DNA of 64,000 bases from a phage. The DNA lies in sequence record PV805631.1; one strand, given 5' to 3'. Below, one piece after another: positions 1,376 through 26,616 of this stretch (its first letter is position 1; every line of letters starts with the position of its first letter). The notes under the pieces are model-generated. The model saw nothing but the letters and a program-made list of their open reading frames with translations. It was not told where the DNA came from and made no database searches. A program made the position numbers and the translations under genes.

Positions 1376-1870
1376 ATGAAGAAACCATATGGCTATTGGC
1401 AACAATCTGCTCACAATTTAGCCAAGATTCATGACCAATCTGATGCTCAGAGTAATGGGTACATATATGTAAAACATGATGGTAAAACCGTACTTTTACA
1501 TGTGTGGATTTGGGAGCAAATCAACGGTGCTATACCGGAAGGGTATGAGATAGACCATGAAAATGGTATCCGTTGGGACTGTAGGTTAAGCAACCTACGA
1601 TGCGTACCAAAGCTAATTAACCTAAGAAACTCAGCAAAACAAGCTAACAATACATCTGGTACTACTGGTGTAAGTATCATTACAGATAGGGGCAGAGAAT
1701 ATTGGATTGCTACATGGAGTGAGCCAGTTACAGGCAAGAAGAGAATGAAGCGCTTCAGTGTACAGAAGAATGGCTATGATACTGCTAAGCAGCTAGCCAT
1801 CAACTATCGTACAGAAGTTCTAAAAGATTTAATTAAAAATCATGACTATACAGAACGTCACGGTATGTGA
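1376..1870 (+). CDS. HNH homing endonuclease with AP2-like DNA-binding domain
   Basis: HNH_3-like motif (EIDHENG...NLR) plus AP2-like segment (NTSGTTGV...W); clear paralog of the ORF at 33131. Confidence 0.75.
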   Translation: MKKPYGYWQQSAHNLAKIHDQSDAQSNGYIYVKHDGKTVLLHVWIWEQINGAIPEGYEIDHENGIRWDCRLSNLRCVPKLINLRNSAKQANNTSGTTGVSIITDRGREYWIATWSEPVTGKKRMKRFSVQKNGYDTAKQLAINYRTEVLKDLIKNHDYTERHGM

Positions 1871-3221: not shown

Positions 3222-3475
3222 TTATTACATTCCCTGTAACTAAATCATTTAACTATATGGGACAAACTATTGAAGTCCCATTATGGGTTAAATATGTAGC
3301 CTTATTACCTCGTCCTCAGAAGAGTAAGAATGCCTCACTAATTGGATTTAGTAGAAAGCCTAAGCTAACTGAAAACTGTATTTGGAAGTCCAGCGGCAGA
3401 CAAGAAGAAATTGGTTTTTGTGACTATGTACCTCAACCGAATACAGTATATCTAACCCTGGAGAAAGTAGAGTGA
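3218..3475 (+). CDS. Hypothetical protein (85 aa)
   Basis: ORF track; stop/start overlap with neighbours. Confidence 0.45.
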   Translation: MIITFPVTKSFNYMGQTIEVPLWVKYVALLPRPQKSKNASLIGFSRKPKLTENCIWKSSGRQEEIGFCDYVPQPNTVYLTLEKVE

Positions 3476-3786
3476 ATAATATTGTAGTAGTACATGATAA
3501 TACATTTACTGACGTCGATAAGATGATGCGTAATATTGATTATGTATCTCAGACTAGTAAAGCATTTAATGAAAAGTTCATTATTTACTGTGAACCAGAA
3601 TCACCGCTGGTTCCCGTATTAAAGGAAGCTGGTCTACCCTTCTCTACAGAGAACTTCCCAGAGGAACCAGAGTATATGATCACATTCATATATGACTTAC
3701 ACGATGGCTCTCCTGCTAGTGAACTGGCTATGAACCAGTGGAGTAGTAAACGTCCTGTATATGCTTTCCAGGTACTTAAACCATGA
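3472..3786 (+). CDS. Hypothetical protein (104 aa)
   Basis: ORF track; stop/start overlaps. Confidence 0.5.
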   Translation: MNNIVVVHDNTFTDVDKMMRNIDYVSQTSKAFNEKFIIYCEPESPLVPVLKEAGLPFSTENFPEEPEYMITFIYDLHDGSPASELAMNQWSSKRPVYAFQVLKP

Positions 3787-4025
3787 TCTATGAAGAATAT
3801 TATGTATTCAAAAAAGGAAATGATTTTATAGCTATGCCCAATGATTACATGGATTGGCATACAACTCCTGTATTAAAAGAAGCATTTTCCGTACCTAACC
3901 TGGAAGAGGTTAATAAAGTAATGAACGGAGTAATGCTAACAAGAGGTATGGCTTACAAAATAGACGCATTAGAAGGAGCTTCTGTATGCAAAGTAACTAC
4001 ATCCATTGAGGTACTTAAACCATGA
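3783..4025 (+). CDS. Hypothetical protein (80 aa)
   Basis: ORF track; stop/start overlaps. Confidence 0.45.
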   Translation: MIYEEYYVFKKGNDFIAMPNDYMDWHTTPVLKEAFSVPNLEEVNKVMNGVMLTRGMAYKIDALEGASVCKVTTSIEVLKP

Positions 4026-4402
4026 AAGCTATCTCATTAGGTGATAACACCAATACTCTAATGGGTGAAACTGCTCGCTCAATTACTATTGTTAATAAAC
4101 ATCATGGTAAATCCGGTGAGTATATTGGGCGTGGCTCACCGTTAGGCAATCCATTCATCATTGGTAAACATGGAACCAGAGAGCAAGTAATTGCTAAGTA
4201 TAGAGTCTGGCTGCAAGAACAGATTGATAAAGGTAATCCAGCTGTACTGGATGAACTCAATCGTCTTGGTAATAAAGCCATTGACGAGAAAGGGCTGGCC
4301 TTACAGTGCTTCTGCTATCCCAAACCATGTCATGGTGAGGTTATTAAAGAGAAGCTCGTTCGGGCTATGTATAACTATTTTGTAGAAAATCCAAAAGGGT
4401 AA
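4022..4402 (+). CDS. DUF4326-like conserved phage protein
   Basis: YIGRGSPLGNPF motif and C-terminal C-x-C...C-H cluster recalled as typical of DUF4326; function unknown. Confidence 0.45.
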   Translation: MKAISLGDNTNTLMGETARSITIVNKHHGKSGEYIGRGSPLGNPFIIGKHGTREQVIAKYRVWLQEQIDKGNPAVLDELNRLGNKAIDEKGLALQCFCYPKPCHGEVIKEKLVRAMYNYFVENPKG

Positions 4403-4405
4403 CTA

Positions 4406-4756
4406 ATGAAAGAAATCTTAGTATTCACTACCAATGTACTTGGGCAGCATACCAATGCTGCTGCCAAGTTAGCTTATAAGAAGCACGGTGCACGTTGGGG
4501 TATGGCCTACGGTCATTATGGTAATAGCTTTGCCATTCCAGTAAGGGATGGCAATGGTAACCGAATTAAAGAGGGTGCTATCTATGGCTTCGTTGAAGGC
4601 TTTATTTCCTATGCATCTACTAATCCACAGTGGGATTTCAAAGTAATGGGAGATGACTTTCTGGACCCATACCTGTTCAATAATGTTACTGGCAATGTAC
4701 TGTTACCAGAAGCATGGCGTAAATACTTAGGTGATGCTTACAACTACTGGTCATAA
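4406..4756 (+). CDS. Hypothetical protein (116 aa), possibly Rossmann-like
   Basis: ORF track; N-terminal beta-strand/Gly motif (ILVFTTNVLGQH). Confidence 0.45.
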   Translation: MKEILVFTTNVLGQHTNAAAKLAYKKHGARWGMAYGHYGNSFAIPVRDGNGNRIKEGAIYGFVEGFISYASTNPQWDFKVMGDDFLDPYLFNNVTGNVLLPEAWRKYLGDAYNYWS

Positions 4757-4760
4757 GAAG

Positions 4761-4780
4761 GGTGCTCCGCACCTTGTGGT
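4761..4780 (+). promoter_or_regulatory. Candidate virion-RNAP early promoter hairpin (copy 3): GGTGC-TCC-GCACC followed by TTGTGG
   Basis: Same architecture as copies 1 and 2; immediately upstream of the RNAP subunit operon. Confidence 0.5.
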
Positions 4781-4804
4781 AATTAACTAATTGGAGAATA
4801 TGCG

Positions 4805-5623
4805 ATGTACTCATCTATCGAACATCAGAAGCAACTCGAAGTACTATTCAATAAAAATCAGCTCCTGCCAAGGATGCGAAAAGAGTTCGAGGACTCCAAA
4901 GAAATTGACTTTAAGGCATTCGCTGCCTATTTGGAAATTGATTATAAACTGCTCATTGATGCAATGGTGCAGATTGCCCTACATAAACGTGCTGACATCC
5001 AGACTATGATTGGCTCTCTCATGAGTCACTCAGATGATGCTCAGTACATCGCTGACTGTCTGTATAAGATGGCAGAGAATGACTGCTTCAACTATGACCC
5101 TACCATCGACAAGTTCGGTGTTATCTATGAGATTAGTGAAGATGTTCAGATGGAACTGGAAGCATTCCAGTATCCATTACCTATCGTAAGTGCTCCTAAT
5201 CCTGTCAGAACTAACAGGGATACTGGTTACTACCAGACTAAGGGAAGCATTATCCTCAAGAAGAACCATCATGAGATGGATGTCTGCCTTGACCATATCA
5301 ACCGTATGAACAATCAACGTCTCTGTATTAACTGGGATGTTGCTAACTATGTAAAAGACTCTCGTCCTAATATGGATAAACCCAAAGAGGGTGAAACCCG
5401 TCAGGACTATGAGAAACGTGTTAAAGCCTTTGAGAAGTACAGTCGTACCGCTAAGGAAGTAATGGAGTTAGTGACTCAGGAAGGTAATAACTTCTCACTA
5501 GCGCATAAGTACGATAAGAGAGGGAGAACCTATGCCTGTGGATACCATATTAACTATGCTGGGACGTCCTACAACAAGGCAGTGGTTGAATTTGCAGACA
5601 AAGAACTAGTAAACGAGGATTAG
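4805..5623 (+). CDS. Phage RNA polymerase II small subunit (N4 RNAP1-like)
   Basis: About 270 aa gene directly upstream of the catalytic subunit; assigned by synteny with the N4 two-subunit enzyme, no motif confirmed. Confidence 0.5.
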   Translation: MYSSIEHQKQLEVLFNKNQLLPRMRKEFEDSKEIDFKAFAAYLEIDYKLLIDAMVQIALHKRADIQTMIGSLMSHSDDAQYIADCLYKMAENDCFNYDPTIDKFGVIYEISEDVQMELEAFQYPLPIVSAPNPVRTNRDTGYYQTKGSIILKKNHHEMDVCLDHINRMNNQRLCINWDVANYVKDSRPNMDKPKEGETRQDYEKRVKAFEKYSRTAKEVMELVTQEGNNFSLAHKYDKRGRTYACGYHINYAGTSYNKAVVEFADKELVNED

Positions 5624-5624
5624 T

Positions 5625-6206
5625 ATGAAGACATGTTCAGTATGTAAGAAGAACTTGCCTCTGGACATGTTCAATAAACAGTCCACAGGTAAGCAAGGTG
5701 TAAGGGCAGACTGTAAAGACTGCCTTAAACGATTTATCCGTTCAAAACACGGAGTCATTAATCAGATGTACTCCGGTTGTATCAGTAGAACTAAGAAGAA
5801 GGGGTTTACTCCTGTATCTTTCACAAAGGAGGAACTAGAGAAATGGGTGTATTCAAGTAAAGAATTTCACGAATTATATGATGAATGGGTATCGAAAGAT
5901 TACCCAACTAACCTAAAGCCGAGCTTAGATCGGTTGGATGATTATAAAGGTTATTCACTGGACAACATTCGTATTGTTACAGCGAATACCAACGTAAAAA
6001 GGTACTACTCTGATGCAATCAATGGTATCAACACCAAATCAGCTAAGCCTGTTGAGCAGTATTCACTAGATGGTAAATACATTAAGACGTTCCATTCACT
6101 TAGTGCTGCTGCACGAAGTGTTAAGGGTATACCCTCTAATATTAATCAAGTAATTAACGGTACATATGCGCAAGCATATGGCTATAAGTGGAAACTAGGA
6201 GCCTAA
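5625..6206 (+). CDS. Diverged HNH-like homing endonuclease candidate between the RNAP subunit genes
   Basis: N-terminal CxxC...CxxC; DRLDD...NIRIVTANTN aligns with the HNH_3 motif of the other HNH ORFs but has Arg where they have the first His. Confidence 0.45.
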   Translation: MKTCSVCKKNLPLDMFNKQSTGKQGVRADCKDCLKRFIRSKHGVINQMYSGCISRTKKKGFTPVSFTKEELEKWVYSSKEFHELYDEWVSKDYPTNLKPSLDRLDDYKGYSLDNIRIVTANTNVKRYYSDAINGINTKSAKPVEQYSLDGKYIKTFHSLSAAARSVKGIPSNINQVINGTYAQAYGYKWKLGA

Positions 6207-6207
6207 G

Positions 6208-7425
6208 ATGCAGATTTTCACAGCTAAAGAATATTTAAAAATTGATATTGCCAATTCTTACGGGCTGGATAAGAAGACATGGGATGAGCGTATTAGCTGG
6301 TTCGATGAGAATGAAGCTAACCTGCTTAATCTGGTAGATGAAGCTGAAGAATCCGCACTGTTCTATGCTGGCGTAAACGCATGGAAAGACATGAAAGCCG
6401 GTAAACCTATCGGTTATGCCGTAGCTCTGGATGCTACATCATCTGGTTTGCAGTTACTGGCTTGCCTGACTGGTGACCGTTCTGCTGCTGAACTATGTAA
6501 CGTAGTTAACTACATGGGTGAGAACGGTAAGCCATTACGTCGTGATGCTTATACAGTTATCTATCACAAGATGCTGGACATCCTTGGTGAATCATCCCGT
6601 ATTAAACGTAGTGATACTAAGCAGGCAGTTATGACTGCGTTCTATGGTTCAGAAGCTAAGCCTAAAGAAGTATTCGGTGAAGGTATTCGTCTCAAGACTT
6701 TTGAGAATGTAATGGAAACAGTTGCTAGTGGACCTTGGGCACTGAACAAGTTCTTACTGCAATGTGGTAACCCGGATGCTAACCGTTACGTATGGGTACT
6801 GCCTGACAACTTCCATGCTGTCATTAAGGTCATGGTTCCAGAAGTACAGACCGTTAACTTCTTAGGTAAGCCATTCGACATCACCCGTATGGTACAGGGT
6901 ACTGAAGATAAGACTCGTATGCTCTCTGCTAACATCACTCACTCTATTGATGGGATGGTGGTACGTGAAATGCTGCGTCGTTGTAACTTCAACATGAACC
7001 AGGTGAACTATGTTAAGTCCCTCTGTGAAGGAACCAGTGAGTATATGCTGGGTACTAGCGGGAACTACGACATGGTTAGTCAACTGTGGCATAACTATGA
7101 GAAATCAGGATTCCTGTCTACCCGTATCTTTGATTATCTGGATTCTGACTCAATTAAACTGGTTGATACAGATGTAATCATGGCTATGATTAATACTATG
7201 CCTAAGAAACCATTCCCTGTAATGACTGTACATGACTGCTTCCGTTGTCATCCTAACTACGGTAATGATCTGCGTCGTCAGTACAATCAGATTCTGTCTG
7301 ACATTGCTAAGAGTGATCTACTGGGCTTCATCCTGTCTCAGGTACTGGGACAAGAGTTCTCTGCTGGTAAGCTGGATGACAGCCTCTGGCAGGACATCCT
7401 TGAAACAGACTATGCGTTAAGTTAA
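6208..7425 (+). CDS. Phage RNA polymerase II catalytic subunit (N4 RNAP2-like, T7-family)
   Basis: T7-RNAP-like motif A (LDATSSGLQLLA), motif B (RSDTKQAVMTAFYGS) and motif C (VHDCF). Confidence 0.8.
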   Translation: MQIFTAKEYLKIDIANSYGLDKKTWDERISWFDENEANLLNLVDEAEESALFYAGVNAWKDMKAGKPIGYAVALDATSSGLQLLACLTGDRSAAELCNVVNYMGENGKPLRRDAYTVIYHKMLDILGESSRIKRSDTKQAVMTAFYGSEAKPKEVFGEGIRLKTFENVMETVASGPWALNKFLLQCGNPDANRYVWVLPDNFHAVIKVMVPEVQTVNFLGKPFDITRMVQGTEDKTRMLSANITHSIDGMVVREMLRRCNFNMNQVNYVKSLCEGTSEYMLGTSGNYDMVSQLWHNYEKSGFLSTRIFDYLDSDSIKLVDTDVIMAMINTMPKKPFPVMTVHDCFRCHPNYGNDLRRQYNQILSDIAKSDLLGFILSQVLGQEFSAGKLDDSLWQDILETDYALS

Positions 7426-7432
7426 TAAACTG

Positions 7433-7467
7433 GCCTCATACCTTCGGGTATGGGGCTTTTATTTTTT
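7433..7467 (+). terminator. Intrinsic terminator (10-bp stem, TTCG loop, TTTTATTTTTT)
   Basis: Read directly. Confidence 0.7.
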
Positions 7468-7484
7468 GCTTGGAGGTAGTCAAC

Positions 7485-7667
7485 ATGACAGACATCTATG
7501 ATGTTATTACTAAAACTGTACTGATAGTTTTATCTGCTATTGTGGTATTCACTATAGCCAATGTTCATAAATCCAAGTTTTCCTATTGCTACTATGGAGC
7601 ATACTCTGCCGGTTGTTTTGTATTAGCCGGTTGGATAGCTTACTGGATTTACCGCATCAACAACTAG
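7485..7667 (+). CDS. Small membrane protein (60 aa)
   Basis: ATG with GGAGG 7 nt upstream; two hydrophobic segments; terminators on both sides. Confidence 0.4.
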   Translation: MTDIYDVITKTVLIVLSAIVVFTIANVHKSKFSYCYYGAYSAGCFVLAGWIAYWIYRINN

Positions 7668-7696
7668 CCACCCTCATGGGTGGCTTTCTTTTTTAT
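7666..7696 (+). terminator. Intrinsic terminator (AGCCACCC-TCAT-GGGTGGCT + TTCTTTTTT)
   Basis: Read directly. Confidence 0.7.
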
Positions 7697-7741
7697 CAGC
7701 CTTCATAATAATTAGGCATATTTACTCAAGAGGATACATGT

Positions 7742-8563
7742 ATGCCAACCTTAAAGATTGCGTTTAATAAAACAACCAACGTTGCTATCGTGCTTGATTC
7801 AGATGGTAGTGTTCCAGATGGTTTTGCGGAAGTAGGTACTTTTGTACATCCTGATGCCACTTACCCTGATAGCTTAGTTATCTATCACGGTGTACGTGAC
7901 CTGTTGTATAAACGTTCTGCTGAAGACCCTGCTGAAGAAGGTTTCTGGCCTAACAGCATCGTGGATATGCAGTCGATCACTATTACCCCACAACTGACTA
8001 TTGCTACCGAACTGCTTAATGAAGTCTCTGCCATCGAAGGTGAAGATATTAACTGGCATATTGATGTAGCAGGTGGTAAAGCACCTTTTACCTATAAGTG
8101 GCAATACAAAGCAGATACTGATGATGCAGTATTCACTGATATTGATTCTGATGACAACGAATCTGCTGCTACTGCAACATTGACCATTAGTGGTGTAACC
8201 GCTGCTTCTGCTGGTACTTATAAAGTGATTGTTACTGATGCTAATGGAACCACGGTGGAAGATACCTCACTGCTGACTGTAAGCTACCCCGAAGCAAGCT
8301 CACTGGTAGCTACCCCAGATTCACTGGAACTGTCTGTTGCTGACGATACTACTGATGGCAAGACTGTAACCATCACTGCTTTGCCTGTCGGAGCGTCTGT
8401 TGGTACTTTATCTATCAAGACTGCTCCGGATTCTGCCCGTGCTACAGCTACCATTTCTGGTAACGTACTAACAGTTAAACCAGTGGCAGAAGGTGAAGCT
8501 ACTTCTGTAGTAGTTACCAACGGTACTGTCGATGTAACCATCGCTATTACTGTTGCAGAGTAA
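7742..8563 (+). CDS. Ig-like domain protein, possible capsid decoration protein (N4 gp17-like position)
   Basis: Ig/Big_2-like repeats (e.g. TLTISGVTAASAGTYKVIVTD); sits right after RNAP2. Confidence 0.45.
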   Translation: MPTLKIAFNKTTNVAIVLDSDGSVPDGFAEVGTFVHPDATYPDSLVIYHGVRDLLYKRSAEDPAEEGFWPNSIVDMQSITITPQLTIATELLNEVSAIEGEDINWHIDVAGGKAPFTYKWQYKADTDDAVFTDIDSDDNESAATATLTISGVTAASAGTYKVIVTDANGTTVEDTSLLTVSYPEASSLVATPDSLELSVADDTTDGKTVTITALPVGASVGTLSIKTAPDSARATATISGNVLTVKPVAEGEATSVVVTNGTVDVTIAITVAE

Positions 8564-10455: not shown

Positions 10456-10932
10456 ATGAACTGGCATGAACTATTTGTTTATAGCAATGGTTCCCTTTAC
10501 TGGAAAGTAAGTAGGGGCTGCGTAAAAGCAGGTGCCATTGCTGGTTGTTTGGATAACAGCGGGTATTTGCGTGTTAAATGTAATAGAAAAAATCATTTAG
10601 TTCACCGCATAATTTATGAAATGGAAATTGGTCCAATTCCTGATGGTATGCAGGTAGACCATATTGACCACAATAGGCTAAATAATTACCCAAGTAATTT
10701 CCGTTTAGTAACAAACATGGTTAATAGTAAAAACCAAACCATGAGAGTAACAAATACATCAGGTGTGACAGGAGTATACTGGCACACTCGGGATAAAATT
10801 TGGACTGCCCATATAAATGACAATGGTAAACAAATTTACTTAGGAAAATTTAACAGTAAACAAGAAGCCATTTCAGCCAGAAAGGAAGCAGAAAAATTAT
10901 TGGGCTACCATATAAATCATGGGGAACCCTAA
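10456..10932 (+). CDS. HNH homing endonuclease with AP2-like domain
   Basis: QVDHIDHNRLNN...NFRLVT motif plus NTSGVTGVYW AP2-like segment; lies between the ATPase and vWA genes. Confidence 0.7.
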   Translation: MNWHELFVYSNGSLYWKVSRGCVKAGAIAGCLDNSGYLRVKCNRKNHLVHRIIYEMEIGPIPDGMQVDHIDHNRLNNYPSNFRLVTNMVNSKNQTMRVTNTSGVTGVYWHTRDKIWTAHINDNGKQIYLGKFNSKQEAISARKEAEKLLGYHINHGEP

Positions 10933-26545: not shown

Positions 26546-26616
26546 TGAAGATAACCAACAACCATGATGTCTCACTAGCTCTGGCTGTATGGCTATTGCA
26601 TGATGAGTAACTAATT

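Follow-up and report, generated by a model that had tools for sequence, protein, structure and literature searches.

Gene 15.1, which lies between the genes for the two subunits of an N4-type RNA polymerase II in an Escherichia phage, is probably an active, free-standing homing endonuclease gene of the PacI type that invaded the RNAP1/RNAP2 spacer, as judged from sequence comparison and a predicted structure. An earlier note on this DNA had proposed that its product might be an inactivated or retargeted homing endonuclease, or a domesticated DNA-binding protein, with arginine standing where the first histidine of an HNH motif would be expected. The gene and its general homing-endonuclease label are already known, as the phage's public record and published comparisons name both. 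What is new here, so far as alignments and profiles can carry it, is a refinement (a PacI-type active site) and a correction (neither inactivated nor an endonuclease VII). For the window, the whole stretch of DNA that was analysed (64,000 nucleotides, phage sequence record PV805631.1), the outcome is mainly a corrected interpretation, in which the apparently "mutated" histidine is the family hallmark of a known selfish element.

Gene 15.1 as an insertion between RNAP1 and RNAP2

Positions 4805-7425 of the window are 100% identical to Escherichia phage vB_EcoP_G7C (HQ259105 / NC_015933), a member of the genus Gamaleyavirus in the Schitoviridae, and the open reading frame at 5625-6206 is G7C gene 15.1, labelled "putative HNH homing endonuclease" in the public record. 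A comparison of N4-like phages counted five HNH homing endonuclease genes in G7C, none of them disrupting a gene (PMC3670811), and small genes between RNAP1 and RNAP2 have been mentioned for some N4-like genomes (PMC3915230). The 193-aa open reading frame does fit between the two polymerase genes as tightly as the earlier note had claimed, with 1 nt from the end of RNAP1 to the ATG and 1 nt from the TAA to the start of RNAP2 (Table 1). It is an open reading frame of its own, RNAP1 having its own stop codon and RNAP2 its own start codon and Shine-Dalgarno sequence, and the two subunits are encoded by separate genes in all of the relatives compared. We considered an intron-encoded origin and rejected it, as there is no Rfam group I or group II signal in 4000-8500 and the flanking stop and start codons are separate. 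The GC content of gene 15.1 is 38.7%, compared with 43.7% for the window and 42.0% and 43.5% for the flanking genes, and this lower value is consistent with a foreign origin.

The adjacency of the two subunit genes in N4, which the earlier note had stated, is correct: they are separated by a spacer of 47 bp (L010, 1414-1460), and in phi G17 by 55 bp with nothing else in it (L006, 1620-1674). Because N4 and phi G17 have only this spacer of 47-55 bp, gene 15.1 is an insertion. Comparison of the junction across relatives shows a presence/absence polymorphism rather than a universal gene. The carriers are five distinct phages, G7C, Bas96, ST4, PGN829.1 and Moonfish (7 of the 60 matching Gamaleyavirus-type records), and the gene is absent from phi G17, N4, PhAPEC7 and others.

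The remaining junctions hold a variety of other open reading frames (Table 1), and all of the non-G7C variants keep an ancestral 3' spacer of about 50 nt, whose small hairpin (AGCCAATAGGCT) is shared by N4 and the Gamaleyaviruses. The G7C-type cassette has replaced this spacer entirely, and the hairpin is absent from the window; G7C evidently manages without an element common to N4 and the other Gamaleyavirus junctions, which might serve in RNA processing, in regulation or as something like a promoter. The possibility that the small open reading frames of PhAPEC7, E20 and 24-32N are what is left of an endonuclease gene of the G7C, HK2 or UE-M6 kind was rejected, as tblastn and blastn found similarity only in the shared 3' spacer. 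A metagenomic N4-like contig (L019) has both an HNH_3-AP2 gene and a PacI-like gene between RNAP1 and RNAP2 (330-857 and 1439-2062), which shows selfish elements stacked at this junction. With at least four different endonuclease genes, several small open reading frames and an empty site competing for one 50-bp spacer, the Gamaleyavirus junction is a compact natural system in which to study homing, co-conversion and competition between selfish elements.

The 3' end of RNAP1 reads GAGGA(T/C) in the G7C-, HK2- and UE-M6-type alleles, all of which carry an endonuclease gene, and serves there as the ribosome-binding site for the insert; it reads GAAGAC in phi G17 and PhAPEC7, which have no endonuclease gene. 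A search for a sigma-70-like promoter between RNAP1, 15.1 and RNAP2, including an internal one for 15.1, found none. A terminator-like hairpin at 5800-5813 was discounted, being a weak stem of 5 bp that probably arose by chance. The gp15 and gp16 genes of N4 are early genes, and by analogy the product of gene 15.1 would be made early, alongside the RNAPII subunits.

Table 1. Features of the RNAP1-15.1-RNAP2 region (window positions) and content of the same junction in related phages
Feature	Position	Strand	Description and basis
RNAP1 (gp15), N4-type RNA polymerase II small subunit	4805..5623	+	PHROG 2166, E=1e-115; annotation
GAGGA Shine-Dalgarno of gene 15.1	5615..5619	+	In the last RNAP1 sense codons; sequence, junction comparison
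Gene 15.1	5625..6206	+	193 aa, ATG start; probable free-standing homing endonuclease gene, PacI-like HNH type
Predicted N-terminal Cys4 zinc ribbon, aa 1-36 (C4, C7, C30, C33)	5625..5732	+	Conservation; alignment with PacI residues 1-44
Beta-beta-alpha-metal nuclease core, aa 96-132	5910..6020	+	AF2 strands and helix; I-HmuI and PacI alignment; invariance
Putative catalytic residues	D102 5928-5930; R103 5931-5933; Y110 5952-5954; N123 5991-5993	+	
NUMOD1 / I-HmuI-like helix-turn-helix DNA-binding domain (predicted), C-terminal, aa 141-193	6045..6203	+	
AGGAG Shine-Dalgarno of RNAP2	6197..6201	+	Inside the 3' end of gene 15.1; sequence, spacer comparison
RNAP2 (gp16), RNA polymerase II large subunit	6208..7425	+	Pfam RNA_pol; PHROG 2051, E=8e-178
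Endonuclease-linked divergent block, RNAP2 5' end (gene nt 6-54)	6213..6261	+	Fixed differences; identity contrast
Strong terminator-like hairpin and T-run	7432..7467	+	End of the RNAP1-15.1-RNAP2 unit
Junction of PhAPEC7			53-aa open reading frame
Junctions of E20 and 24-32N			Small open reading frames, unrelated
Junctions of HK2 and pSb-1			Second PacI-like gene, identity 33%
Junction of UE-M6			Canonical HNH_3-AP2 gene
Junction of PW8			Another open reading frame of 168 aa at the same position; weakly like the UE-M6 gene (30% over 74 aa)

Domains and putative active site of gp15.1

Pfam gave a single match in gp15.1, to NUMOD1 (aa 141-171, E=6e-8), and at E<=1 nothing beyond it and no HNH model; Pfam and NCBIfam together recognised only the NUMOD1/intron-endonuclease C-terminus and missed the nuclease core. 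PHROG 1035 ("endonuclease VII") matched the full length of the protein (E=1.6e-30), and several HNH PHROGs matched aa 80-143. When gp15.1 alone was searched against the PDB sequences as a single sequence, only noise was returned, and a family profile, built from 27 homologues, was needed. This profile matched I-HmuI (E=4.8e-5), in an alignment that extends through the C-terminal DNA-binding module, and the restriction enzyme PacI (E=3.5e-3), in two collinear pieces consisting of the N-terminal CxxC...CxxC ribbon and of VDRSDSFEGYSPQN...N against LDRLDDYKGYSLDN...N. The AF2 model of gp15.1 (pLDDT 95) has strands at 99-103 and 115-119 followed by a helix at 120-132, and its top fold matches are also I-HmuI and PacI. 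The matches to I-HmuI, PacI and the HNH PHROGs supply the nuclease-family relationship that the earlier note had suspected, and support the assignment of gp15.1 to the His-Me finger / HNH (beta-beta-alpha-metal) nuclease superfamily, with a homing-endonuclease architecture. NUMOD1 is usually found in homing endonucleases that act as monomers on long asymmetric targets, and this C-terminal module is also present in GIY-YIG proteins among the homologues of gp15.1.

The N-terminal pair of CxxC motifs described in the earlier note is found as C4-x2-C7 and C30-x2-C33, and the putative active-site segment reads L-D102-R103-L-D-D-Y-K-G-Y110-S-L-D-N114-I-R-I-V-T-A-N-T-N123. The claim that arginine replaces the first histidine holds with I-HmuI as the reference, V-D74-H75...N96 pairing in the family profile alignment with D102-R103...N123 of gp15.1. 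The alignment on which the claim had been based, with the HNH-AP2 genes of the same phage, is only marginal: hhalign of the gp15.1 family against these genes gave E=0.11 and covers just SLDNIRIVTANTN versus RLSNLRCVPKLIN. There are four such HNH_3/AP2-type genes in the window (1376-1870, 10456-10932, about 26611-27111, and 33131-33625), the copies at 1376 and 33131 sharing 52% identity. They belong to the same superfamily and share the selfish lifestyle of 15.1, and a gene of this type occupies the UE-M6 junction, but they have a canonical DH...N motif with Pfam HNH_3 and AP2 domains and lack the zinc ribbon and NUMOD1. On the basis of the hhalign result and the absence of any HNH_3 or AP2 Pfam match in gp15.1, we rejected its membership in this group.

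An exhaustive search of 1.84 billion cluster representatives with the family profile returned 2,319 proteins at E<=1e-30, and conservation was scored on 113 near-full-length representatives of 50%-identity clusters. D102, R103 and Y110 are each 100% conserved, N123 is 99% conserved, and the four cysteines (C4, C7, C30 and C33) are conserved at 95-96%. Strand 1 does not end in the general-base histidine; the column holds Arg103 in 113 of 113 representatives. Since R103 is invariant across this set, we take Arg103 to be a hallmark of the family and not a lesion specific to G7C.

PacI is an exception among the His-Me finger nucleases in that the catalytic histidine is missing and is replaced by a tyrosine of the omega loop, acting as general base or nucleophile, with one Asp and one Asn as the ligands of the metal (PMC5714182; PMC4081073). 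The Arg-for-His exception defines the PacI group of this superfamily (PMC5714182). In our alignments D102 pairs with D74 of I-HmuI and D92 of PacI, N123 with N96 and N113, respectively, and R103 with R93 of PacI, and Y110 pairs with the sole tyrosine in the aligned PacI loop segment, a position taken from the alignment. The same D-R...Y arrangement is seen in LDRLDDYKGYS of gp15.1 and VDRSDSFEGYS of PacI. The invariant residues of gp15.1 are thus, by alignment, the set that a PacI-type active site would require, the putative link to PacI itself resting on a weak profile match and on similarity to a modelled fold.

There are also clear differences between gp15.1 and these two relatives. PacI (PDB 3LDY/3M7K; His-Me finger group 20, Jablonska et al. 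2017) shares the D-R...Y...N and Cys4 motifs with gp15.1, at a sequence identity of only about 20%, but it is a type IIP restriction enzyme that acts on TTAATTAA as a homodimer (142 aa) and has no separate DNA-binding domain, whereas gp15.1 has a helical linker of about 60 aa and a C-terminal NUMOD1, and is encoded by a mobile phage cassette. Around its core PacI also holds a second zinc through cysteines, in part those of the core helix (LACFICN), while the corresponding gp15.1 segment, IRIVTANTN, has no cysteine. Bacillus phage SPO1 encodes I-HmuI (PDB 1U3E) in an intron, and this HNH homing endonuclease has the canonical active site D74-H75...N96 and no N-terminal Cys4 ribbon; gp15.1 is the product of a free-standing gene and has R103 in the position of H75.

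The 2017 classification of His-Me finger proteins lists the PacI group mainly from giant viruses (PMC5714182), and the size of the phage family to which gp15.1 belongs may for this reason be under-appreciated. By its sequences, this very large family (thousands of 50%-identity clusters) appears to combine a PacI-type, tyrosine-assisted His-Me core with NUMOD1 targeting, and it is a possible source of new site-specific nucleases. The label "endonuclease VII", found in PHROG 1035 and in several GenBank records, looks like a misnomer carried over from the rV5 annotation. Membership of gp15.1 in the T4 endonuclease VII family (Endonuclease_7, HxDH...CxxC-N, PF02945) was considered and rejected, this family giving no Pfam match and not appearing in the PDB profile search at E<=10.

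Probable activity and homing, and the linked flanks

Gene 15.1 is under purifying selection about as strong as that on the polymerase genes, with dN/dS of 0.05-0.13 at dS 0.2-1.0, compared with 0.03-0.09 for RNAP1 and RNAP2. Its copies are intact in all five phages, and among 18 metagenomic clusters at 87-95% identity, 16 encode 193 aa, one 179 aa (P0017) and one 200 aa (P0020). Homing endonuclease genes often degenerate once fixed, and gene 15.1 might be imagined as the decaying remnant of a once-mobile gene, neutral cargo linked to RNAP2, with arginine in place of histidine as a mark of decay. In other phages HNH genes are often found truncated (PMC12724721). Intact copies and low dN/dS disfavour a remnant, as does the presence of the arginine throughout the family, and we find this explanation hardly credible.

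A catalytically dead, domesticated DNA-binding protein, regulating for example the RNAPII operon or middle transcription, would accommodate both the missing general-base histidine and a dN/dS as low as that of essential genes. It would also suit the tight coupling of 15.1 between two essential genes, for one of which, RNAP2, it provides the ribosome-binding site, and there is a precedent in SMAD MH1, a His-Me domain that lacks catalysis and has kept DNA binding (PMC5714182). We nevertheless regard such a role as quite unlikely. The residues that are invariant are the PacI catalytic set (D102, N123 and the loop tyrosine), which a pure binder would not need; N4 and most close relatives lack the gene, so that RNAPII does not need it to function; and the family occurs in many unrelated phages and contexts, as is typical of mobile nucleases. 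The earlier reading of the arginine as a sign of inactivation or domestication is therefore not sustained, given the invariance of D102, R103 and Y110, the same arrangement in PacI, an active enzyme, and selection like that on the polymerase. The accompanying idea of a homing endonuclease survives in its HNH/His-Me membership and architecture, without the inactivation.

If gp15.1 is an active homing endonuclease, as we favor, the zinc ribbon and NUMOD1 would place a PacI-type one-metal active site on the DNA of a cassette-free co-infecting relative, the helix-turn-helix of NUMOD1 supplying sequence-specific binding. D102 and N123 would bind the catalytic metal, R103, at the position of the general-base histidine, would stabilise the phosphate, and Y110, the invariant loop tyrosine, would do the job of the histidine as base or nucleophile. 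As an early gene, 15.1 would share a transcript with RNAP1 and RNAP2 and be coupled to them in translation. In a mixed infection the enzyme would cut the cassette-free junction in or near the spacer or the 5' end of RNAP2, and repair from the carrier genome would then copy in the gene along with its flanks, about 40-150 nt from the 3' end of RNAP1 and the initial ~54 nt of RNAP2. We infer the nuclease activity, the tyrosine catalysis and the location of the target; the junction of the spacer with the RNAP2 5' end, which the insertion itself disrupts, is the most likely target, and the block at nt 6-54 of RNAP2 is an alternative.

This block stands out when RNAP2 is compared between four carriers and four non-carriers. 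All 14 of the fixed differences between the two groups fall within nt 6-54, with none in the other ~1160 nt, and the first 60 nt are 66% identical between groups and 94% and 88% identical within them. The last ~160 nt of RNAP1 (5465-5623) form a hypervariable mosaic in every comparison among relatives. Over the bulk of the flanking genes the carriers are not mutually closest, Bas96 being nearest to the endonuclease-free PhAPEC7 (97.3%) and PGN829.1 nearest to UE-M6, and the junction block groups strictly by cassette type. The cassette does not track the phylogeny of its flanking genes and has been exchanged horizontally. Such cassette-wise grouping is what would be expected from homing with co-conversion, and the block at nt 6-54 might be a flank that was co-converted, the form of the target site that is protected, or both at once. 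The block and the incongruence could also have come from homologous recombination of the ordinary kind at a hot spot, unstimulated by any nuclease. In protein sequence, the RNAP2 N-terminus of the carriers (MQIFTA..KID) is nearer to that of N4 (MQTFTA..KID) than is the non-carrier Gamaleyavirus allele, which makes it ambiguous in which direction the change went and where the target site lies.

An active nuclease might instead serve chiefly as a weapon or a means of exclusion, cutting the DNA of a competitor (marker exclusion) or, early in infection, of the host, in the manner of PacI-like restriction. The likeness of gp15.1 to a restriction enzyme invites this suggestion, the homologues in LUZ100 and Pyxpy02 are annotated "putative restriction endonuclease", and it would be compatible with the strong purifying selection and with the place of 15.1 in an early-gene operon, where it lacks a separate promoter-like site. 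However, NUMOD1 and an I-HmuI-like C-terminus are characteristic of homing endonucleases whose sites are long and asymmetric, and a linked flank block with cassette-specific junctions is a prediction of homing and co-conversion. We think it unlikely that exclusion is the main function, although the two are compatible and the distinction is partly a question of emphasis.

The homing reading has parallels among free-standing endonucleases of other phages. T-even enzymes such as SegG and MobE are encoded by intergenic, variably present genes, which spread when the endonuclease-free allele is cleaved and its flanks are co-converted. They fall into the GIY-YIG class or into canonical HNH classes that have the histidine, and experiments have demonstrated both cleavage and co-conversion for them; gp15.1 is like them in its placement between conserved genes, its own cleavage being putative. 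The "PacI-like" HNH genes of Skunavirus, a class assigned by profile similarity to PacI, are described as free-standing, variably present at a fixed location and presumed homing endonucleases (PMC12724721). They differ from gp15.1 in host, phage family and insertion site (the morphogenesis module), and they are rare in Skunavirus (2 of 268), in contrast to the thousands of clusters in the gp15.1 family. In a marker-exclusion assay with Skunavirus genes, the two reported to reduce plaque numbers were HNH7 and HNH9, and the one PacI-like HNH gene included was not among them (PMC12724721).

Homologues and introns at RNAP2

The homologues closest to gp15.1 beyond its own genus have the same placement: in Vibrio phage pVco-5 (39% identity) the gene lies between RNAP1 and RNAP2, directly upstream of RNAP2, and in three metagenomic N4-like loci (45-52%) it is likewise found between the two genes and abutting RNAP2. 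Acinetobacter phage XC38 and Erwinia phage MIF8 have a more distant homologue downstream of RNAP2, and further distant homologues occur in rV5-like, Vibrio, Pseudomonas and other phages. We checked 13 IMG/VR relatives (34-45% identity) for neighbouring RNAP1 or RNAP2 genes and found none (0/13), and the association with RNAP2 is for this reason a trait of a sub-lineage and not of the whole family.

RNAP2 itself is interrupted in some of these phages. In Moonfish (L005) it is split by a group I intron at 3224-3467 (Rfam RF00028, 91 bits, E=1.5e-22), followed by an HNH_3-AP2 open reading frame at 3528-4172. The intron site is inside catalytic motif C, exon 1 ending in ...TVHD and exon 2 containing ...FRCHPNYG, and corresponds to about 7228-7242 in the window (RNAP2 aa 341-345, VHDCF), where G7C has no intron. 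The Moonfish arrangement of intron and open reading frame recurs in a metagenomic N4-like contig (L017). Sub-threshold matches to group I introns (36-38 bits, E about 1e-6) were found in pVco-5 (L007, 4117-4218 and 4605-4874) and XC38 (L008, 1898-2034), adjoining open reading frames that divide RNAP2 in two and that have no Pfam match. RNAP2 seems to be a recurrent target of introns and endonucleases across the Schitoviridae.

The RNAP2-abutting lineage is present in Gamaleyavirus, Vicoquintavirus and the three metagenomic N4-like loci, and a profile of T7-like polymerases is cleanly split between the two subunits, aa 117-271 of RNAP1 matching positions 227-425 and aa 7-149 of RNAP2 matching positions 428-595. 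It is tempting to see in this PacI-like lineage a relic of the event that split a single-subunit T7-like RNA polymerase into RNAP1 and RNAP2. We consider this decidedly improbable, and it stays speculative because all N4-like phages have the split polymerase, with or without the cassette. If true, the heterodimeric N4 RNAPII would be a "gene in pieces" made by a homing endonuclease, and the present group I intron and HNH insertions in motif C of RNAP2 would be the same process, still ongoing.

A second variable patch in RNAP2 lies at 6988-7428 of the window (nt 781-1221), with identities among relatives of 66-84% around nt 781-960; for UE-M6 the identity over nt 781-1221 is only ~76%. Lying just upstream of the Moonfish intron site, this patch may be the footprint of past intron homing or co-conversion.
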